Virus record (IMG/VR): IMGVR_UViG_2579778807_000004
DNA length: 44,314 nt
Source: a virus
Taxonomy: Duplodnaviria > Heunggongvirae > Uroviricota > Caudoviricetes
Reading direction: 5' to 3' (one strand)
The notes beneath the pieces were generated by a model. That model did not search any database and was not told the origin of the DNA. It saw nothing but the letters and a program-made list of their open reading frames with translations. This document shows positions 25,951 through 42,999 of this stretch, piece by piece. Within the stretch, counting starts at the first letter, position 1, and every line of letters starts with the position of its first letter. A program made the translations under genes and the position numbers.

Positions 25951-26224
25951 CATGATGTTACCGTAGTATGTGAGTATCCATCGAATAGATACCAAGCAAA
26001 AAAGCTCCCGAAGGAGCCTTCATTTTCACTTTTTTAAATCCAACGACAGACGGCTGGCATTTAAGTATTGTGAAATATTATCAAATGTAATCATCATTGA
26101 TTTACAAAAGATACATTTTGCCCCGAAAGGATTCATGTCAGAAACATCAAAAGATGATGTTCTATACTGGGAACCATGACAACACGGGCATCTAAAGTGA
26201 ATATGGTTTGTAATATTGTCTACC

Positions 26225-26437
26225 TCAAAGCGCCACTACATGAACAGCGGCAGGACCTTTAGGTCCGTTCTCAATACCAAATTCAACTTCCTGATTCTCA
26301 GTTAATGTTTTGAAATCGTTGCTCTGAATTGCTGAGAAATGGACAAACACATCTTTGCTGCCATCTTTCGGCGTGATGAAACCAAAACCTTTTTCAGGGT
26401 TAAACCATTTCACTAAACCAGTCATTTTGTTAGACAT
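26225..26437 (-). CDS. Cold-shock protein, CspA family
   Basis: [35 protein letters not shown]... canonical cold-shock domain; long AT-rich 5' leader upstream. Confidence 0.92.
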
Positions 26438-26800
26438 AATTATTACCTTTTGAAGAAATTAGCCCTTGGGCAGAATGGTCCGAAAAAAAATATCAGAGAG
26501 AAAAACCAACAAGGAAATCTCAAGAGGTACAAATAATAAAATTATAACAATGACTGCTTCAGATAAATTTGTAACAAACCAGAACACCATTAACGCATGA
26601 TTAACCACCCATAGCAAGGATTACTTTTGTAAAGAAAAACACAGCAATGAAAGAATAGCTTTATTTATTAATAATAACGTGTCATTCTGATTAAGACCTT
26701 TTATCTTACCCTTAAGATTTCAGGAATTTTGGCTCATGGAAGAGTCCTTTTTATTTAAATTTTACATTCCGCGATGTAAATGTTCCGATTTAATATTACC

Positions 26801-29666: not shown

Positions 29667-30626
29667 TTAATTCACCATCAGTCTTAGAGCCAGTTCTTCC
29701 GGATAGGGATCGAAGTAATTCTGTGTAAGCAAGTAATCATTAGGATACTCACCCAGATAATGCTTCAGCAGAGTCAACGGCGCAAGAAGAGGCAATGTGC
29801 CAAAGCGATAGTTAAGTATAACCTCGCTCAACTCTTTACGCTGGCGTGTACTTAAGTAATTACTAAAATACCCCTGTATATGCATCAGCACATTCGTGTG
29901 ATTTTTACGTGATGCTGGTTTTCTGAGAATCGCCATCAGATTATCACGATACACCTCAAAGTATGATTCAAGGTCCGCCCACTCGTGTATTGCAGCCACA
30001 AATGGTCCCATATCTTTATAGCCTGCCTGGCTATGCGCCAACAACTGAAGCTTATAACGACTATGAAAAGCTAATAACTCTCTTCTTGATAATTTCTCCT
30101 TGTAAAGATGATTGAGCTCATGCAAAGCAAAAACTCTTTCAATAAAATTCTCACGAAGCACTGGATCATGTAATCGCCCATCCTCTTCAACCGGTAGCCA
30201 GGAAAACTTTTCCATCAAAGTGCTCGTAAATAGTCCCACTCCATCTTTACGACCTCGATTACCATTTTCATCATAGACACGCACGCGCTCCATGCCACAG
30301 CTGGGAGATTTAGCACAAACCACAAACCCCGATACATCCTTTAATTTGTCCATATAAGAACGACTAAACTCTGTCATTCTCTCTGTCACATCCTCATTCT
30401 GGTCGTGGCTGAAACACATCCGTATATTTCCTTGCTTCGAGCGCACAAGTCGTAGAGCAGGACGCGGAACTGGCAGCCCTATAGCCATTTCCGGACATAC
30501 TGGTCTGAATGTTACCCATTCCACTAATTTGTCCATTAAAAAGTCATCTCTTTTGTGACCACCATCAAAACGAACAGCAGAACCGCCCAAACAACCGCTG
30601 ATCCCAATCACAGGTTTTTTTATCAT
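29667..30626 (-). CDS. DUF523/DUF1722 two-domain protein (YbgA-like; N-terminal domain resembles TudS-type Fe-S proteins)
   Basis: 319 aa; N-terminal Cys-containing motifs (ISGCLGG, CPE, CAKSPSCGME) then YbgA-like C-terminal domain; recalled from memory. Confidence 0.55.
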   Translation of the reverse strand: MIKKPVIGISGCLGGSAVRFDGGHKRDDFLMDKLVEWVTFRPVCPEMAIGLPVPRPALRLVRSKQGNIRMCFSHDQNEDVTERMTEFSRSYMDKLKDVSGFVVCAKSPSCGMERVRVYDENGNRGRKDGVGLFTSTLMEKFSWLPVEEDGRLHDPVLRENFIERVFALHELNHLYKEKLSRRELLAFHSRYKLQLLAHSQAGYKDMGPFVAAIHEWADLESYFEVYRDNLMAILRKPASRKNHTNVLMHIQGYFSNYLSTRQRKELSEVILNYRFGTLPLLAPLTLLKHYLGEYPNDYLLTQNYFDPYPEELALRLMVN

Positions 30627-30818
30627 TTCCTCCCCCTTGACTAATTCATTAACACATAAACTTTGTAATGCACGGACTAAATTGCCTTTCTGGCTTCATC
30701 ACTGACAATTTTTCTGTTATGGACTATTCCTAATATAGTAGGAAAGTTCTTTAAGTGATCGGTCGTACTCATCTATCTTTCATACTTACTCTCAACTATC
30801 AAAAGTACAGGATTTATT

Positions 30819-31343
30819 ATGAAGTTATGGCCTGTGTTGACTGGCATTGCACTCTCTTTCACTCTTATAGCATGTAAGGCCCCGACACCACCTAAAGGTG
30901 TGCAGCCGATTACAAATTTTGACGCCAACCGCTACCTCGGAAAATGGTATGAAATAGCTCGCCTCGAGAACTGGTTCGAACGTGGTCTGGAACAAGTCAG
31001 CGCTACTTATGAAAAACGGAACGACGGAGGGATTCGCGTACTTAACCGTGGATACGATCCAACGAAAAACAAATGGAGCGAGAGCGAAGGTAAAGCATAC
31101 TTTACTGGAGATACTAAAACTGCAGCGTTGAAAGTTTCGTTTTTTGGCCCCTTCTATGGTGGCTATAATGTAATCAAGCTGGATGATGAGTATAAGTATG
31201 CTCTTGTCAGTGGTCCGAACAGAGAATACCTATGGATTCTGGCAAGGACCCAAACTATTCCAGATAATGTAAAAGCAGACTATGTGCGTACCGCTCAAAA
31301 GTTGGGATTCAATGTCAATGAACTATTATGGGTTAAACAATAA
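30819..31343 (+). CDS. Outer-membrane lipocalin (Blc-like)
   Basis: Lipoprotein signal (LIACKAP) and strong similarity to remembered E. coli Blc (NFDA.RYLGKWYEIAR...FERGLE...KVSFFGPFYGGYNVI.LD.EY..ALV.GP.R.YLWIL.RT). Confidence 0.88.
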   Translation: MKLWPVLTGIALSFTLIACKAPTPPKGVQPITNFDANRYLGKWYEIARLENWFERGLEQVSATYEKRNDGGIRVLNRGYDPTKNKWSESEGKAYFTGDTKTAALKVSFFGPFYGGYNVIKLDDEYKYALVSGPNREYLWILARTQTIPDNVKADYVRTAQKLGFNVNELLWVKQ

Positions 31344-31893: not shown

Positions 31894-32943
31894 TTAGGCC
31901 AGCACACCAATTGCCAGCGCGCGATCGATAAATCGAAAAATCAGCTCCAGTTGGGAGCCATACTTCTCTTCAAATGCCACGGTACCCGTATGCAACTCGT
32001 CGTGATGCTTTCTGCACAAAGGCAACACAAAGAGATCATGTGCTTTGGTTCCCATTCCGCCCTGCCCGTGACCAATCAGATGATGCGGATCGTCGGCTGG
32101 CATACCGCAGCAAGCACACGGCTGTGTCTTAACCCAGCGTGTGTATTTCTCCTTAACCCAACGGTGACGTTTAGGCAGCTTCATGAAAGATTCCGGAGAC
32201 TCAGGATCAACGGTGATGCTTACCACCGTTTTTTCCTGTGATGGGTTTTGTCGCTGGTGGGCGTGAGGCAACGGTGCAAGATTTTTTGTGCGCTGTTTCA
32301 ATATGCTGGTGGCGGTCTGCTCTCCCGGTACGATGTCGCTTTCGCGGTACACCGAGCAGTTTTTTTCCGCTGGTAATCCCAGCGAGCGACGTAATACCGC
32401 TTCCGGTAGCGCGTCCGCCACCTGATTGCGGACCGCCCACCAGGATAATTCAGCCAGAGATAATTCACGCTCCTGCGTACCGCTTATTGCGTGACCGATG
32501 ACGTCAATCATCCATGCTGACAGGTTTTGATGAGCAAGTTGCTCGAGTGATTCGGATGTCTGGTCACGCAGCTGGTTGTCGCAGTGCCAGCACAACACCA
32601 TTGCGCCGGTACCATAACGGTGAATAACGGTTTCGCTGTGATGATAATCGCCGTGTGGCCACTGGCAGGATTTAATATGGCGCAACAGCCAGTCAGACAA
32701 TGCACCAGCACCACCAGCAGTACGAATTACCCGTGCATTACTGAAAAACGGCAGCAATGTTTTGTCTTCCACCAGCGGCTGGCGAACGGCAGGAACGACC
32801 CCGGACGGCAGATTACGCATGCTTTTCGGTTCCGGCTCCACCAGTACCCGGGTATTGTGGAATACCGGCATGGATTCACGGCCCGGCTTAACGACCACCA
32901 GCCCGAGTTCCGGTACCAGAACAGGTCGAAGTAATACCCGCAC
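31894..32943 (-). CDS. ydfU: DUF968 protein with HNH-like Cys/His motif (YdfU-like)
   Basis: 349 aa; C-terminal [43 protein letters not shown]; position next to Q as in Qin. Confidence 0.6.
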
Positions 32944-33769: not shown

Positions 33770-33925
33770 TTACTCCTCAGGTTCGTAAGCTGTGAAGACA
33801 GCGACCTCCGTCTGGCCGGTTCGAATTCGTACCTCGCAAAGGTCTTTCCTCGTTACCAGTGCCGTCACTATGACGGTTAAACAGATGACGATCAGGGCGA
33901 TTAACATCGCCTTTTGCTGCTTCAT
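33770..33925 (-). CDS. hokD: Hok/Gef-family membrane toxin
   Basis: MKQQKAMLIALIVICLTVIVTALVTRKDLCEVRIRTGQTEVAVFTAYEPEE matches remembered HokD/RelF; 51 aa. Confidence 0.85.
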   Translation of the reverse strand: MKQQKAMLIALIVICLTVIVTALVTRKDLCEVRIRTGQTEVAVFTAYEPEE

Positions 33926-34155
33926 AGCCTGCTTCTCCTTGCCTTTCGGCACGTAAGAGGCTAACCTACATGTGTCTAGCATGAAATTGGCCTCAGATTA
34001 ATGTTAAGCGTCTTGCAGGACGCGTAATGTTAACTGGGGCTTTTCTCTATCTGCCTTTGGTGTTCATGCCTGAGACAGATAGCCTCAAGCACCCACGGAA
34101 ACTTTACTAAAGGAGTTATAGCTTTTCCAGTAGTCTCAACATATTCACATTGCTA

Positions 34156-35712
34156 TTACCTATCAAACAACGGATGTATTACAAAATCTCTCTTCATATC
34201 AGTAATATCCAAATTAGGTTTATCAAAAGATGAATATATAATTAAAGATGCTGTTTTCCTTATGCCAACCACGCCTACGACGAACCAGACTTTAAGTAAC
34301 TCCTCAAAATTCATCAATATTTTTGTATGTTGATCATCCTCTTTAACTACAGTCAATCTATCAAGTAAATGCTGCGATATATCATCTTTTACTGCTTGTC
34401 CTATGTTTGAGACTGTAAAATCAGAAAATGAAATCAAGGAAAGCACATCCAAATATTCTTCGATAAACGGATATATGCTTTTCCATTCTGTAACCAAAGC
34501 TCTCTTTCTGGACGAATAAAATTTCTCTTCGGCAATTAACACAATATTTTCATTCATGTTAACCATACCATCGCACTCAGAAAGACATATATTTACGAAA
34601 TTAATTGCATCTCTAGGCCTAAGCATTGTTCTGTCAAGGATATAATCATCTGCTCCAATACCTTCAACTGTAAAATTAAAAATATCCTTCATTAATACAG
34701 ACTTATTTGATTGATATCTATTTTTAACCAAATGGTTAATTCTAGCATCAATAATCTCTCTTATTTCCGTTTTATTCCATGATATGGAATATATTAAAGA
34801 TTGATCTTTCTCATCCTGCCTTAAACTACTTTTATAAATTCCCATTAAAATATCTGTTCTTATTGATATCAGAACCTTAACCGACTTTATATCTAATAAT
34901 TCTCGAAAGGCCTCAAGAAGAGCATTAATAAAGTCATATCTGATGGCGCTCGTGCTTAACCAAGATTTATCTAAATCATCGATACTGATTACTATTCTAA
35001 CCTGGTTTGAGTCAGCGAACTCCTCTTTAAGTATTTTAATAAGTTCTTTTTGTTTAAAAAGAAGTTCACGACTCACATAACTTGAAGTTTCTGATTGTAT
35101 TTTGGCTGTATCAGAATTAGATATTTTACCACCCACACCAACAGCGGAATTTCCGAGTTTGAATGACAAATCACTTTCAAGCTTGTTACTTATTTCAATG
35201 AGCGCTTTATCATTGAAGAAATTTTCTTTAAATTGTTCAATATAATCATTCGCAACTTCTGGTTTATACGGTTTCTTCTTACCACCAATAAGATCTTTAA
35301 TTTCCTCAAAAAAGCTTTGATAGGAAGAACGATAAACGGCTGGTATAACTTTCATAAGTAATACATGCAGCCATAACGATTTATAAAACCCACGTAAATC
35401 TATCCCTTTCGAGATCAAATCAGATATAAACACATTGTTATTAATATGTTCAAATATCGTATTTTCTGCCTCTATTGTGTCATGCAGCTTAATATTTCCT
35501 TTGTCTAATATTTTTTTAAGCAACGCAGACTTACCGCTTCCTGTTCTTCCAACAATAATTCTTCTTGTAAAATCAGGATTCTTCTCAGTAGAGTCAAAAT
35601 TCACAATACCTTTAAAAACATTGGACTCATAAAAACAAGCATCAAGATAAGAATCAGTTTCCGCCTCTAATTTTCCAATCTCATCATTATTTCTGAATTT
35701 ATAGGCATTCAT
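34156..35712 (-). CDS. P-loop NTPase of unknown family in an AT-rich island; candidate standalone anti-phage defence / abortive-infection protein
   Basis: Walker A IVGRTGSGKSALLKKI near N-terminus; Walker B-like VRIVISIDDLDKSW ~185 aa later; Arg-containing motif RTMLRPRD; strikingly AT-rich versus flanking phage genes; occupies the relBE-equivalent hotspot. Confidence 0.7.
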   Translation of the reverse strand: MNAYKFRNNDEIGKLEAETDSYLDACFYESNVFKGIVNFDSTEKNPDFTRRIIVGRTGSGKSALLKKILDKGNIKLHDTIEAENTIFEHINNNVFISDLISKGIDLRGFYKSLWLHVLLMKVIPAVYRSSYQSFFEEIKDLIGGKKKPYKPEVANDYIEQFKENFFNDKALIEISNKLESDLSFKLGNSAVGVGGKISNSDTAKIQSETSSYVSRELLFKQKELIKILKEEFADSNQVRIVISIDDLDKSWLSTSAIRYDFINALLEAFRELLDIKSVKVLISIRTDILMGIYKSSLRQDEKDQSLIYSISWNKTEIREIIDARINHLVKNRYQSNKSVLMKDIFNFTVEGIGADDYILDRTMLRPRDAINFVNICLSECDGMVNMNENIVLIAEEKFYSSRKRALVTEWKSIYPFIEEYLDVLSLISFSDFTVSNIGQAVKDDISQHLLDRLTVVKEDDQHTKILMNFEELLKVWFVVGVVGIRKTASLIIYSSFDKPNLDITDMKRDFVIHPLFDR

Positions 35713-38685: not shown

Positions 38686-39062
38686 TGAGGCTGACGATGG
38701 AATTTAAAGATTTACCGTCTGATGTACAGAAAACAGCAGCTCATACATTGCATTCTGTGCTGCGAGAAATCGGGAAAGATATTGCAAGCGAGCCAGCAAA
38801 AGATCTGGCCCGGAAAATCAAGACCGCTTTCGTTGAGCTTTATAATGTTGGCACTGACTCTGAAACTGTCGAGACCAAGACCGTAAGTTCACCAATATTC
38901 TCACTTGAGCCAGGCGTATTAGCAGGTGAAATATGCACCGAGATTTCCAGCGAACTGCTTCCGGTAATACGAGAAGCAATTTGCCGTCGCGGTTTGGATG
39001 GAAGTTACGATCATGACGTCCTGCAAGTTCTCAGGACAATGGTGACTTCACTGGGGATTTGA
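38685..39062 (+). CDS. Hypothetical protein (ydfB/ydfC position)
   Basis: 125-aa ORF with ATG overlapping ydfA stop (TGATG). Confidence 0.5.
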   Translation: MRLTMEFKDLPSDVQKTAAHTLHSVLREIGKDIASEPAKDLARKIKTAFVELYNVGTDSETVETKTVSSPIFSLEPGVLAGEICTEISSELLPVIREAICRRGLDGSYDHDVLQVLRTMVTSLGI

Positions 39063-39506
39063 TCCCTGCGTCCTCTAACCTTTTGATATAGCGGTCCTCC
39101 AAGAAGCGGTAAATTTTGTCGAAATCATCTTTCCCCTCTGGTTTATTCAGAGGATTACAGGACCCGTAAGTAGCGGCATACATTTCAACCGTTTTATCAA
39201 AAATATAAGAGACAAATTCTTCTTTAGTCATATAGATTTCCTTCTTGGTTATTCGGGATAAGAAGGATACCACCTCGCCTGACGTGGTTAAAAGCAGGCA
39301 CACAACACGAAAGCGCACGGCGAAGTTCGTCTCACTGTACGGTGTCGTTAAATTTAATTCGACCGTGCGCTTCCGGTTGTGGCAACCCGCGAAATGGCGC
39401 GGCGGTAAGTATGGCGGGGTTATTCCTTCCCCGTTGAGGACACCGAGTTGTCAGGTTGACCATACGCTTAAGTGACAACCCCGCTGCAACGCCCTCTGTT
39501 ATCAAT

Positions 39507-39562
39507 TTTCTGGTGACGTTTGGCGGTATCAGTTTTACTCCGTGACTGCTCTGCCGCCGTTT
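39507..39562 (+). ncRNA. dicF: DicF small regulatory RNA (FtsZ translation inhibitor)
   Basis: TTTCTGGTGACGTTTGGCGGTATCAGTTTTACTCCGTGACTGCTCTGCCGCC followed by TTTTT matches remembered DicF; between ydfA-region and dicB. Confidence 0.85.
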
Positions 39563-39733: not shown

Positions 39734-39922
39734 ATGAAAACGTTATTACCAAACGTTAATACGTCTGAAGGTTGTTTTGAAATTGGTGTCACTATCAGTA
39801 ACCCTGTATTTACTGAAGATGCCATTAACAAGAGAAAACAAGAACGGGAGCTATTAAATAAAATATGCATTGTTTCAATGCTGGCTCGTTTACGTCTGAT
39901 GCCAAAAGGATGTGCACAATGA
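39734..39922 (+). CDS. dicB: Cell-division inhibitor DicB
   Basis: MKTLLPNVNTSEGCFEIGVTISNPVFTEDAINKRKQERELLNKICIVSMLARLRLMPKGCAQ matches remembered DicB (62 aa). Confidence 0.88.
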   Translation: MKTLLPNVNTSEGCFEIGVTISNPVFTEDAINKRKQERELLNKICIVSMLARLRLMPKGCAQ

Positions 39923-40110
39923 ATTCAGCATTTGCGCTTGTTCTGACAGTTTTTCTTGTTTCCGGAGAGCCAGTTGATATTGCAGTCAGTGTTCACAGGA
40001 CAATGCAGGAGTGTATGACTGCAGCAACCGAACAGAAAATTCCCGGTAACTGTTACCCGGTCGATAAAGTTATTCACCAGGATAATATCGAAATCCCGGC
40101 AGGTCTTTAA
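39919..40110 (+). CDS. ydfD: YdfD-like small membrane protein
   Basis: MNSAF.LVLTVFLVSGEPVDIAVSVHRTMQECMTAATEQKIPGNCYPVDKVIHQDNIEIPAGL; ATGA overlap with dicB stop. Confidence 0.75.
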   Translation: MNSAFALVLTVFLVSGEPVDIAVSVHRTMQECMTAATEQKIPGNCYPVDKVIHQDNIEIPAGL

Positions 40111-40203
40111 AACAGTTCCGTAATAAATATCCGGTTTCATTCTTATATGCCAGCAATGGCAGGGATTTGTTCATCCTTAAATCTGTCATGAGGTTAAAAC
40201 AAA

Positions 40204-42675
40204 ATGAGTAAAGTCTTTATTTGCGCCGCTATTCCTGACGAACTGGCAACAAGGGAAGAAGGCGCTGTGGCTGTAGCCACAGCCATTGAAGCTGGCGACG
40301 AACGCCGTGCTCGAGCAAAATTTCACTGGCAGTTCCTGGAACATTATACGGCTGCTCAGGACTGCGCTTATAAATTTATTGTCTGCGAGGATAAACCTGG
40401 CATACCTCGCCCTGCCCTCGATTCATGGGATGCTGAATATATGCAGGAAAACCGCTGGGATGAGGAGTCTGCTTCTTTTGTCCCGGTTGAGACTAAATCC
40501 GATCCGATGAACGTCACTTTTGACAAGCTGGCCCCTGAAGTACAGAACGCTGTCATGGTTAAGTTCGACACATGTGAAAACATCACCGTTGATATGGTTA
40601 TTAGCGCACAGGAATTGTTGCAGGAAGACATGGCAACATTCGACGGACATATCGTTGAAGCGTTGATGAAAATGCCAGAAGTTAACGCCATGTATCCGGA
40701 GCTTAAGTTGCACGCCATTGGGTGGGTTAAGCATAAATGTATTCCTGGTGCTAAATGGCCCGAAATTCAGGCAGAGATGCGCATCTGGAAAAAACGTCGC
40801 GAAGGTGAACGCAAGGAAACCGGAAAATACACGTCTGTTGTTGATCTCGCCCGCACCAGAGCCAATCAACAGTACACTGAAAATTCAACAGGAAAAATCA
40901 GCCCGGTCATTGCTGCCATTCATCGCGAATACAAGCAGACATGGAAAACACTGGATGACGAACTGGCCTACGCTCTCTGGCCTGGTGATGTGGATGCCGG
41001 AAACATTGACGGCAGCATCCATCGCTGGGCAAAAAAAGAAGTTATCGACAACGACCGCGAAGACTGGAAGCGTATCTCGGCATCAATGCGCAAACAGCCT
41101 GATGCCCTTCGCTACGACCGCCAAACTATTTTTGGCCTTGTCCGTGAGCGTCCGATCGACATTCACAAAGAACCCGTAGCACTGAACAAATATATCTGCG
41201 AATACCTGACGACAAAGGGCGTGTTTGAGAATGAAGAAACAGACCTGGGCACTGTTGATGTTCTCCAGTCATCAGAAACACAAACTGATGCAGTGGAAAC
41301 TGAGGTATCTGATATCCCAAAAAATGAAACCGCGCCGGAAGCTGAACCATCTGTAGAGCGTGAGGGGCCGTTCTATTTCCTCTTCGCAGATAAGGACGGA
41401 GAAAAATACGGTCGCGCAAACAAACTTTCTGGTCTGGATAAGGCACTGGCTGCTGGCGCCACTGAAATCACTAAAGAAGAATATTTTGCCCGAAAAAATG
41501 GCACATACACGGGCTTACCGCAAAATGTAGATACCGCTGAAGATTCAGAACAACCAGAACCGATAAAAGTTACCGCTGACGAAGTAAACAAAATTATGCA
41601 GGCAGCCAATATCAGCCAGCCTGACGCCGATAAGTTGCTTGCTGCATCACGTGGTGAATTTGTTGAAGGGATTAGTGACCCGAATGATCCGAAATGGGTT
41701 AAGGGGATCCAGACCCGCGATTCTGTGAACCAGAACCAGCATGAATCGGAACGGAACTACCAAAAAGCGGAACAAAACAGCCCAAATGCGTTACAAAACG
41801 AGCCAGAAACGAAACAGCCTGAACCAGTGGCGCAACAGGAAGTGGAAAAAGTCTGCACCGCCTGCGGTCAGACCGGCGGCGGCAACTGCCCTGATTGTGG
41901 CGCGGTGATGGGCGACGCAACATACCAGGAAACATTCGATGAAGAGTATCAGGTTGAAGTTCAGGAAGATGATCCGAAGGAAATGGAAGGCGCTGAACAT
42001 CCACACAAGGGGAACACTGGCGGCAATCAGCATCACGATAGCGATAATGAAACTGGCGAGACGGCAGATCACTCAATTAAGGTGAACGGTCATCACGAAA
42101 TCACATCCACCAGCAGGACGTGTGACCATCTAATGATCGACCTTGAAACCATGGGAAAAAATCCTGATGCCCCGATCATCTCAATAGGTGCAATATTTTT
42201 CGATCCGCAAACCGGAGATATGGGACCGGAATTTAGTAAGACTATCGATCTGGAAACTGCTGGCGGAGTCATTGATCGGGACACCATTAAATGGTGGCTT
42301 AAGCAATCACGCGAAGCGCAATCTGCCATTATGACCGATGAAATCCCGTTAGATGATGCACTGTTACAATTGCGGGAATTTATCGACGAAAACTCCGGTG
42401 AATTTTTTGTTCAGGTCTGGGGAAATGGAGCCAACTTCGACAACACGATTTTGCGCCGTTCATACGAACGGCAGGGGATCCCCTGCCCGTGGCGTTACTA
42501 CAACGATCGCGATGTACGCACAATCGTTGAGCTGGGGAAAGCCATAGACTTCGATGCCAGAACGGCTATTCCATTCGAAGGTGAGCGCCATAATGCACTT
42601 GATGACGCCCGTTACCAGGCAAAATACGTTTCAGTTATCTGGCAAAAACTGATCCCGAGTCAGGCTGATTCTTAA
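40204..42675 (+). CDS. Large early-region protein with C-terminal DEDDh (DnaQ-like) 3'-5' exonuclease domain and a Cys4 zinc ribbon; intact YdfE-like
   Basis: C-terminal motifs MIDLETMG, WGNGANFD and HNALDDARY; zinc ribbon CTACGQTGGGNCPDCG; N-terminus resembles remembered K-12 YdfE. Confidence 0.7.
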   Translation: MSKVFICAAIPDELATREEGAVAVATAIEAGDERRARAKFHWQFLEHYTAAQDCAYKFIVCEDKPGIPRPALDSWDAEYMQENRWDEESASFVPVETKSDPMNVTFDKLAPEVQNAVMVKFDTCENITVDMVISAQELLQEDMATFDGHIVEALMKMPEVNAMYPELKLHAIGWVKHKCIPGAKWPEIQAEMRIWKKRREGERKETGKYTSVVDLARTRANQQYTENSTGKISPVIAAIHREYKQTWKTLDDELAYALWPGDVDAGNIDGSIHRWAKKEVIDNDREDWKRISASMRKQPDALRYDRQTIFGLVRERPIDIHKEPVALNKYICEYLTTKGVFENEETDLGTVDVLQSSETQTDAVETEVSDIPKNETAPEAEPSVEREGPFYFLFADKDGEKYGRANKLSGLDKALAAGATEITKEEYFARKNGTYTGLPQNVDTAEDSEQPEPIKVTADEVNKIMQAANISQPDADKLLAASRGEFVEGISDPNDPKWVKGIQTRDSVNQNQHESERNYQKAEQNSPNALQNEPETKQPEPVAQQEVEKVCTACGQTGGGNCPDCGAVMGDATYQETFDEEYQVEVQEDDPKEMEGAEHPHKGNTGGNQHHDSDNETGETADHSIKVNGHHEITSTSRTCDHLMIDLETMGKNPDAPIISIGAIFFDPQTGDMGPEFSKTIDLETAGGVIDRDTIKWWLKQSREAQSAIMTDEIPLDDALLQLREFIDENSGEFFVQVWGNGANFDNTILRRSYERQGIPCPWRYYNDRDVRTIVELGKAIDFDARTAIPFEGERHNALDDARYQAKYVSVIWQKLIPSQADS

Positions 42676-42747
42676 TGTTCAACTGTCGCCGGTTGTGACT
42701 GGTATTCTGCAACCGGCGCTCGTCTGATGTAAGAGATAAAGAAATCG

Positions 42748-42999
42748 ATGAGCGAAGTAATCATGATTGTCTCTCCCGGCAAATGGGTATCCGAAGAGCA
42801 GTTAATTGCGCTGAAAGGAATAAAAAAAGGTACGTTAAAAAAGGCCCGGGAAAAATCGTTTATGGAAGGAAGGGAATATAAGCATGTCGCTCATGACGGT
42901 ATGCCATGGGATAACAGTCCATGCTTTTACAACCTGGAAGAAATTGATCGCTGGATTGAGCGCCAGGCATCAGCAAGACCAAGACGTCATCTTACTTGA
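42748..42999 (+). CDS. Excisionase-like protein
   Basis: 83 aa directly upstream of integrase; GREY...H motif reminiscent of lambda Xis. Confidence 0.6.
   Translation: MSEVIMIVSPGKWVSEEQLIALKGIKKGTLKKAREKSFMEGREYKHVAHDGMPWDNSPCFYNLEEIDRWIERQASARPRRHLT

Follow-up and report, generated by a model that had tools for sequence, protein, structure and literature searches.

A RecE-type body joined to a predicted DEDDh 3'-5' exonuclease in the full-length ydfE-type gene of a lambdoid Escherichia coli prophage

RecE creates 3' tails for annealing. In the Rac prophage its nuclease, a 5'-3' enzyme of the PD-(D/E)XK type, is encoded in the early-left operon, where a kil/dicB-type gene precedes it and xis and int come later, and the gene is followed by recT. 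The function of the roughly 590 N-terminal residues of RecE is listed as unknown in a 2023 review (PMC11611040). The DnaQ-type 3'-5' nucleases, in turn, include genuine members of lambdoid recombination modules, and sporadic others are found "very near int" (PMC12315714, Genome Res 2025). Here we describe a gene of the ydfE type (40204 to 42675, + strand) in a stretch of 44,314 nucleotides from a virus of the Caudoviricetes (IMG/VR record IMGVR_UViG_2579778807_000004, hereafter "the window"). The 823-residue protein that it encodes is predicted to join a RecE-type body to a DEDDh 3'-5' exonuclease, and the prophage that carries it is located at the Qin site, adjoining rspB.

To judge from alignments, this protein is a RecE-family member whose nuclease cassette was exchanged at a linker, and not an unrelated protein in the exo position. 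We make this assignment because its body is homologous to that of RecE (residues ~15-625, corresponding to the non-catalytic 590 residues of Rac RecE), and because alleles 96-97% identical to that body carry the RecE nuclease. The two proteins share their place in the early-left operon, between a kil/dicB-type gene and xis-int, as well as the elements of the body: an N-terminal domain (hhalign probability of 93%), a middle domain, the peptide GISDPNDPKW, a CxxC-x7-CxxC motif and an acidic linker. They differ in the nuclease, which is PD-(D/E)XK and 5'-3' in RecE but DEDDh and, by prediction, 3'-5' in the window protein; in the next gene, recT following recE but not the window gene; and in an extra domain of the window protein, aa 388-435. 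Thus, whereas RecE leaves 3' tails, the window enzyme would remove 3' ends. A preliminary description of the gene, made from the sequence alone, had set the protein apart from nucleases of the lambda Exo/RecE type. This stands for the catalytic domain, which is DEDDh and lacks PF12684, but not for residues ~15-625, which align as RecE-homologous. The features of the gene and of its product are as follows.

40204..42675, + strand: ydfE-type exonuclease coding sequence, complete, 823 codons; open reading frame with an ATG start, encoding a RecE-family body and a DEDDh exonuclease
40190..40193, + strand: Shine-Dalgarno-like GAGG, 10 nt 5' of the ATG, read from the sequence
40204..40938, + strand: N-terminal domain (YdfE_N type), aa 1-245; alpha/beta unit aa 1-100, helical unit aa 105-220
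40939..41238, + strand: helical middle domain, aa 246-345, common to RecE residues ~278-345 (BLASTP, partial NF007259 match; predicted with a local confidence score, pLDDT, of 92-98)
41239..41364, + strand: disordered acidic linker, aa 346-387 (pLDDT <50 for 346-381)
41365..41508, + strand: small beta-beta-alpha-beta-alpha domain, aa 388-435 (GPFYFLFADKDGEKYGRANKL...; pLDDT 92-96)
41620..41697, + strand: conserved peptide, aa 473-498 (DADKLLAASRGEFVEGISDPNDPKW), from alignment A2 and five alleles
41848..41901, + strand: Cys4 zinc-ribbon-like motif, aa 549-566 (C551, C554, C562, C565)
41914..42126, + strand: acidic linker with the exchange point, aa 571-641 (net charge -15; pLDDT <50)
42127..42642, + strand: DEDDh 3'-5' exonuclease domain, aa 642-813 (Pfam PF16473)
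42139-42141, 42145-42147, 42439-42441, 42589-42591 and 42604-42606, + strand: catalytic codons D646, E648, D746, H796 and D801, respectively

The C-terminal domain was assigned with PF16473 (Rv2179c-like 3'-5' exoribonuclease domain), of which profile positions 2-177 of 177 aligned with aa 642-813 (E=2.3e-67; 226.6 bits against a cut-off of 27). The sole solved relative found by sequence was PDB 8kel/8ken, a 227-aa protein deposited as "Exodeoxyribonuclease" (E=5e-08), which is T4 DexA (PMC12153337). When the two were paired by phmmer, D646 and E648 corresponded to D7 and E9 of DexA, and D746, of the F745-D746 pair, to D119; the third motif, H796-x4-D801, was also present. All five catalytic residues are invariant in the five alleles compared, and they are retained in distant homologues and in standalone proteins as well. 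The DnaQ-like DEDDh exonuclease with the motifs DLE, FD and H-x4-D, as put forward in the preliminary description, is therefore well founded. That description had named a lack of the DEDDh residues on alignment as the finding that would speak against it, and this objection fails because all the catalytic residues align with those of T4 DexA. We predict that the domain is a metal-dependent 3'-5' exonuclease. A structural model of aa 440-823, built with AlphaFold2 (AF2) from a thin alignment, had a mean pLDDT of only 54, and the best neighbors of this low-confidence model in Foldseek were oligoribonuclease and 3'hExo (E~0.08).

Within the PF16473 family, T4 DexA and its E. coli homolog EcD share with the window protein the aligned catalytic D, E and D and the H-x4-D motif. 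They are standalone enzymes of 189-227 aa, however, whereas the window domain is fused to a 640-aa RecE-type body. Rv2179c of Mycobacterium tuberculosis, a cellular single-domain exoribonuclease and the namesake of PF16473, likewise has the family domain and the DEDDh catalytic set; it gave no direct match in the PDB sequence search, and the kinship is at the level of the family only. A literature search with "Rv2179c" returned nothing on phage homologs. Closer relatives are the standalone DnaQ-type nucleases of lambdoid phages (epsilon34 gp34, 1720a-02 AGR48394 and the "exoribonuclease" of Salmonella phage F1055), which share 56-60% identity with aa 641-823 and likewise belong to the early-left operon, but have no RecE-type body. 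In epsilon34 the homolog (56% identity) lies inside a recombination module with a Rad52-type annealase, a single-stranded DNA-binding protein and Abc2, none of which is found in the window prophage; in F1055 the next genes are a small open reading frame and the integrase; and in phage 1720a-02 it stands at the end of the early-left region. Family members of the PF16473 type in virulent phages are found among replication genes.

The forward primer given for EcD in PMC12153337 led to a 189-aa protein that starts with MIDTET and has A78. Its identification as EcD is probable rather than certain, because there is a one-base mismatch to the primer at its 3' end. Exact searches of viral and genome contigs with the EcD reverse primer gave no usable match, and a 20-mer gave one unrelated chance match. 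The probable EcD gene (locus L046, 5679-6248, - strand) is a standalone PF16473 gene in a prophage early region, where its neighbors include integrase and DNA methyltransferase genes as well as transcriptional regulators. On that evidence it belongs to a phage and is not a chromosomal gene dedicated to defence.

Kinship of the body with RecE was apparent from several comparisons. By BLASTP, aa 262-625 aligned with residues 278-591 of Rac RecE (E=3e-62), and from about aa 473 to 625 the identity was roughly 85-90% by eye, including DADKLLAASRGEFV(E/D)GISDPNDPKWVKGIQTRD, the Cys4 motif and the acidic tail. The NCBIfam RecE equivalog model NF007259 matched aa 246-625 with its positions 271-602 of 877, scoring 284.5 bits, which is below its cut-off of 1269. 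The N-terminal part is more distant: a Pfam scan of the 823-aa protein gave no direct match to PF06630, the RecE N-terminal profile. When profiles of 14 YdfE_N-type and 14 RecE_N-type N-termini were compared by hhalign, they aligned over 166 columns with a probability of 93% (E=3.5e-7), and the controls, a reversed profile and ten column-shuffled profiles, all remained at or below 0.2%. These profile comparisons indicate that the N-terminal domain is a remote homolog of the PF06630 domain of RecE. The RecE nuclease domain, PF12684, gave no match in the Pfam scan of the 823-aa protein and is present in Rac RecE.

The exchange itself can be followed among alleles. A search with aa 1-640 recovered 900-aa proteins with 96-97% identity to aa 1-~630 in which PF12684 occupies the C-terminus and whose genes have recT as their neighbor on the 3' side. 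In blastn comparisons, the similarity of the window gene to two PD-(D/E)XK genes (92.8% and 98.2%) and to Rac recE (loci L005, L006 and L004) ended at the same base, 42070, in codon 623. Conversely, phage vB_EcoS-813R8 encodes an 813-aa protein in which a PF06630 N-terminus is combined with the DEDDh domain; over window positions 41564-42719 this phage is 97.8% identical, whereas the 5' part of the gene is not shared, and the same form occurs in P0128, P0141 and P0242. Domain mapping of representatives gave all four combinations, with YdfE_N or RecE_N each joined to PD-(D/E)XK or DEDDh. In a third group the body has neither nuclease, and the C-terminal ~250-400 aa have no Pfam match. Members of this group (P0126, P0129, P0134, P0137, P0155, P0170, P0187 and P0188; loci L018-L020) have the YdfE_N/YdfE_C body; their gene is the last large one ahead of int, and recT is absent. 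A third type of effector may be present in these proteins, which may correspond to the "RecE-2" proteins that PMC12315714 mentions as lacking a nuclease fold. As a separate observation, P0200 (703 aa) is an apparent in-frame recE-recT fusion, in which the RecE N-terminus and middle run to the first half of the Cys4 motif and are followed by a different sequence (GHAYLLPFGNKNEKSGKK...), which may be RecT-like.

The type of nuclease was coupled to the gene that follows. For the PD-(D/E)XK forms, recT was directly next in three of three loci (Rac, P0108 and P0006). For the DEDDh forms, xis/int was directly next in all 11 loci (the window, HannyBb, 813R8, P0242, two P0141 contigs, P0122, three further E. 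coli prophages and the K-12 remnant), with no annealase gene; in P0141 and P0122 it was int itself that came directly next. In the window, neither recT nor another annealase gene lies between the exonuclease gene and xis, and no RecT-, Bet- or Erf-type protein is listed in the RefSeq annotation of the whole prophage. In the DEDDh loci the annealase gene is gone along with the 5'-3' nuclease, and a DEDDh domain of the DexA/Rv2179c type stands in their place. In the literature searched, we found no explicit statement of this apparent cassette relation to RecE, with a nuclease of reversed polarity, or of the coupling to recT.

Taken as a sequence feature, the gene is already known, being an annotated RefSeq protein with assignments to PHROG 2082, to Pfam YdfE_N/YdfE_C and to PF16473. 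The product is 100% identical to WP_114200709.1 ("3'-5' exonuclease"), and E. coli YZ3E2001 is identical to the window across the gene; some alleles bear the RefSeq label "3'-5' exoribonuclease". PHROG 2082 ("exonuclease") matched end to end, over positions 1-822 of 823. Membership of PF27430 (YdfE_N) and PF27432 (YdfE_C) was read from the precomputed hits of proteins 85-97% identical over the queried first 640 aa, rather than by scoring the 823-aa protein directly. The family is narrow, with 244 clusters at 50% identity at E<=0.001 among 1.84 billion representatives. Within E. coli, the gene is nonetheless among the commonest prophage genes: 3537 of 5426 complete genomes (65%) have it in full length, 4799 have some part of it, and there were at most 10 matching places per genome, of 10,641 in all. 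DNA of the RecE nuclease together with recT was found in 1728 of the same 5426 genomes, about half as many as the DEDDh form. Phage records have the gene too, among them that of Escherichia phage HannyBb, annotated as a complete genome, which carries it at 99%.

In a K-12-type genome, the first 767 nt (255 codons) match at 99.3% and are then interrupted by the IS2 transposase, in the same gene order as in the window: dicA-ydfA-ydfB-ydfC-dicB-ydfD-[exonuclease fragment]-IS2-intQ-rspB. Both the identity of the first part and the shared neighbors bear out the view that the truncated ydfE of K-12 has its intact counterpart in the window gene. The description of the product as an acidic protein of 823 aa also holds, since the frame is intact on the + strand from 40204 to 42675 and the protein has 152 D+E against 91 K+R (net -61).

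We compared five alleles that differ by 8-12% in DNA (the window, three E. coli prophages and HannyBb; synonymous divergence, dS, ~0.27), calculating the ratio of nonsynonymous to synonymous change (dN/dS) by the method of Nei and Gojobori. The reading frame was kept in all five and dN/dS was 0.21 overall. By region, the values were as follows.

aa 1-245, N-terminal domain: dN/dS 0.12
aa 246-345, middle domain: dN/dS 0.11
aa 388-435, small domain: dN/dS 0.04
Cys4 motif: dN/dS 0.09
DEDDh domain: dN/dS 0.11
three linkers: dN/dS 0.47-0.72 (aa 346-387, 0.67; aa 571-641, 0.72)

Thus, the folded domains are under purifying selection and the linkers are not. Constraint follows predicted order, and relaxation predicted disorder: in an AF2 model of aa 1-460 (49-sequence alignment; mean pLDDT 84.9, and 93-98 across most of the N-terminal domain), blocks with pLDDT >90 comprised aa 1-100 (alpha/beta), 105-220 (helical), 245-340 (helical) and 388-432 (beta-beta-alpha-beta-alpha), and confidence was low at aa 221-235, 346-381 and 439-460. 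The most constrained part of the protein, aa 388-435, is absent from Rac RecE and aligns as an insertion relative to RecE-type sequences.

Over all architectures (DEDDh, PD-(D/E)XK and others), the most conserved element is the peptide LAAxRGEFVxGISDPNDPKW at aa 480-498. In alignment A2, residues A480, R483, G484, G489, I490, S491, D492, P493, D495, P496, K497 and W498 were at least 90% conserved, and the longer stretch of aa 473-498 was identical or nearly so in the five alleles. The Cys4 motif noted in the preliminary description is present, with the spacing C551-x2-C554-x7-C562-x2-C565; its four cysteines are invariant in the five alleles, and CxACGQTGGxNCPDCG is common to this region and Rac RecE. 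AF2 confidence over the motif was only ~50-58, and the NCBIfam zinc-ribbon score was 14 against a cut-off of 130 bits. We also considered the Cys4 zinc ribbon as a feature that might define the family; this was ruled out, because the motif is missing from several members (P0122, P0141, P0242, P0143 and P0237).

The exonuclease gene is the last of an operon in the order DicA-like repressor, DUF1391, small open reading frames, DicF, dicB, ydfD, exonuclease, after which come xis and int. Its position upstream of xis-int is as originally described. The neighboring features are as follows.

39508-39559, + strand: DicF small RNA (Rfam RF00039, 72.5 bits)
39734-39922, + strand: dicB (Pfam DicB)
39919-40110, + strand: ydfD (Pfam DUF1482; RefSeq annotation of the identical genome)
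42687..42718, + strand: inverted repeat with perfect 9-bp arms (CGCCGGTTG / CAACCGGCG) and a loop of 14 nt, after the exonuclease stop codon and before xis
42748-42999, + strand: excisionase (Pfam DUF1233)
43019/43034-44314, + strand: tyrosine integrase (Pfam Arm-DNA-bind_2 and Phage_integrase)

A consensus scan, which gives a weak negative, found no sigma-70-like promoter on the + strand between 38456 and 43200, suggesting that the gene is probably co-transcribed with dicB and ydfD. The inverted repeat at 42687-42718 has no run of T after it and was not called by the terminator scan; it could be an element for RNA processing or stability, or a protein-binding site. In addition, this otherwise + strand operon contains a small antisense open reading frame (39031-39318, - strand) between the ydfC-like region and dicF, which corresponds to the 66-aa hypothetical protein WP_000159335.1 in RefSeq and has no Pfam match.

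Considering these data together, we propose that the protein is an early-lytic exonuclease that processes the 3' ends of DNA and works without a phage annealase. We put the probability of this reading at about one in two, its substrate and role resting on homology and gene context. The gene would be transcribed last in the repressor-controlled dicF-dicB-ydfD early-left operon, so that the protein would appear upon induction or infection but be absent from the lysogen. The DEDDh domain would remove nucleotides from 3'-OH ends, with D646, E648, D746 and D801 serving in two-metal catalysis and H796 as the general base. Homology to T4 DexA makes DNA the most probable substrate. The RecE-type body may take the nuclease to the substrate or partner of RecE itself, probably DNA ends or intermediates of replication or recombination. 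The trimmed ends would be handed to host RecBCD and RecA and not to single-strand annealing, a hand-over that we infer because a phage annealase is absent. A concrete possibility is that 3' overhangs or flaps are trimmed such that the ends suit RecBCD or extension by a polymerase. The analysis establishes the domains, the catalytic residues, the exchange point, the purifying selection, the gene order and the tie of nuclease type to recT; the preference for DNA over RNA, the timing of expression, the targeting by the body and the hand-over to host recombination are inferred.

The distribution of Chi sites bears on the postulated use of RecBCD. The window contains eight Chi octamers (GCTGGTGG), compared with ~1.4 expected by chance; six of the eight are on the coding strand of the late genes, and four of these six lie in the lysis/Q/nin region. 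A pattern of this kind has been described for lambdoid phages that rely on RecBCD (PMC12315714). Five Chi octamers lie within ~650 bp (32253-32895) inside the ydfU/DUF968 gene (31894-32943, - strand), on the + strand at 32253 and 32305 and on the - strand at 32711, 32769 and 32895.

Several points weigh against the proposal of an annealase-independent 3'-end-processing enzyme. The six Chi octamers in the proposed active orientation are fewer than the Chi-rich class typically has (at least eight). Because the Pfam family takes its name from an exoribonuclease, RNA stays among the possible substrates. Further, 3'-5' exonucleases usually inhibit homologous recombination, and a role in promoting it is for that reason not obvious (PMC12315714). 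Since some members have neither nuclease, the body may serve a separate function that has nothing to do with end processing. Structure prediction, which the preliminary description had suggested for the N-terminal part, produced the confident model of aa 1-460 reported above (mean pLDDT 84.9) but not a structural neighbor: Foldseek searches of PDB and BFVD gave no match at E<=0.001, and only a sub-domain of ~70 residues was weakly matched, by ferredoxin-like folds and by uncharacterised small phage proteins. Because the N-terminal 460 aa have no structural neighbor in these databases, the targeting role of the body is a conjecture. A sequence search for a solved homolog of the N-terminal 640 aa likewise gave nothing above noise (best, SycT, E=1.2), and a literature search found no functional study of ydfE among the matches listed.

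A tentative alternative, to which we give appreciable but clearly less weight, makes the ~600-aa RecE/YdfE body the primary unit. This body would tether DNA ends or bind a host factor through GISDPNDPKW, and would be served by interchangeable cassettes: PD-(D/E)XK with RecT, DEDDh, or a third, unrecognised C-terminal domain. Were the protein an inter-phage weapon or defence nuclease of the kind called "HREX", it would degrade the DNA of competitors, for example T-even DNA modified with 5-hydroxymethylcytosine (5hmC), and so protect the induced or lysogenic cell. There is a precedent in EcD, which is reported to cut 5hmC DNA, not unmodified DNA, and to protect against T4 (PMC12153337). The probable EcD is 39% identical to the C-terminal domain of the window protein (E=2e-38) and also lies in a prophage early region. 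We nevertheless consider this explanation unlikely. In pairwise phmmer alignments, W152 of DexA, which is proposed to stack on 5hmC, is replaced by Y766 in the window protein and by T in allele L015, whereas it is W in EcD and in the standalone homologs. In addition, D718, which corresponds to D90 of DexA, is kept and is invariant in the alleles, and it is to the loss of D90, with a dimer-only state, that PMC12153337 ties the selectivity of EcD. The gene lies in a repressor-controlled early operon without a promoter-like site of its own, for which reason we expect it to be silent in lysogens. The PADLOC defence models gave no match for the protein, and a defence role would leave unexplained both the 640-aa RecE-type body and its reciprocal exchange with the RecE nuclease and RecT.

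Counter-defence against the host is rather improbable in our estimation, although early expression and a position among accessory genes would suit it. The nuclease would then destroy host immune nucleic acids with free 3' ends (retron multicopy single-stranded DNA, the complementary DNA of defence reverse transcriptases or linear oligonucleotide signals), and the acidic body would serve to decoy or bind RecBCD or other host factors. The net charge of -61 with long disordered acidic linkers, the nearly invariant short peptide, of a kind used for protein-protein contacts, and an early-left operon without a recognisable anti-RecBCD gene are all consistent with this. Against it, profile, PADLOC and Foldseek searches gave no similarity to known anti-defence proteins; the linkers evolve almost neutrally, which is unexpected for a specific mimic; and the RecE homology, together with the module context of the standalone homologs, favors DNA metabolism. 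We hold it to be just as improbable that the protein is a 3'-5' exoribonuclease like Rv2179c, which would turn over early transcripts, trim their 3' ends or control the int/xis message from its 3' end. The Pfam annotation and the RefSeq label of some alleles point to RNA, as do the best, if weak, fold matches, both of which are RNA enzymes, and the gene adjoins xis-int, with a hairpin 3' of its stop codon. Those fold matches come, however, from the model with a mean pLDDT of 54 and have E~0.08, whereas T4 DexA, the only solved relative found, was deposited as an exodeoxyribonuclease and is a DNA exonuclease (PMC12153337); moreover, the domain takes the place of a DNA nuclease on the RecE body, and the standalone homologs lie within recombination and replication gene clusters. 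Finally, K-12 and related strains keep only the IS2-truncated fragment and many database entries are partial, as would be the case for a decaying remnant without present function. We regard this as scarcely credible for the full-length gene, and rejected a reading as a pseudogene or decaying gene on the dN/dS pattern: the frame is intact in five alleles at dS~0.27, dN/dS lies between 0.04 and 0.12 throughout the folded domains, none of the catalytic or Cys residues varies, and the full-length gene is carried by 3537 genomes as well as by a phage record that was deposited as complete.

Elsewhere in the window, a 518-aa P-loop protein (34156-35712, - strand) is encoded between hokD/sok and the replication genes. 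RefSeq names it "P-loop ATPase, Sll1717 family", its matches to KAP_NTPase and nSTAND1 are weak, and it looks like an accessory or defence-type gene, for which PADLOC gave no match. Between the Q antiterminator and the lysis genes (29667-31343), a YbgA-family gene (2-thiouracil desulfurase domain and DUF1722) and a divergent lipocalin gene form apparent cargo with no relation to the functions of the phage. Rfam matches above the gathering score were as follows.

1218-1416, - strand: IS009 RNA
26198-26583, - strand: cspA-type thermoregulator leader, upstream of cspI
33920-34094, - strand: sok antitoxin RNA of hokD

The gene is an ordinary, catalogued one with an interesting modular history. Its full-length DEDDh form is found in about twice as many genomes as the classical recE-recT pair, and it amounts to a natural experiment on RecE, in which one body, 96-97% identical, is found with nucleases of opposite polarity and an annealase accompanies the 5'-3' form only. 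It offers a direct handle on the role of the RecE N-terminus, full-length RecE being the form that improves linear-linear recombineering, as well as on how DNA ends are processed in the many lambdoid phages without a recognisable recombination module (PMC12315714). The comparison is also relevant to the claim made for "HREX" as a defence, as both the EcD-like gene and the gene of the window protein are prophage early-operon genes. If the body is indeed a platform for interchangeable cassettes, the DEDDh form would be an annealase-independent route of 3'-end processing in the commonest E. coli lambdoid prophages, and its study would reveal the role of the N-terminal two thirds of RecE.

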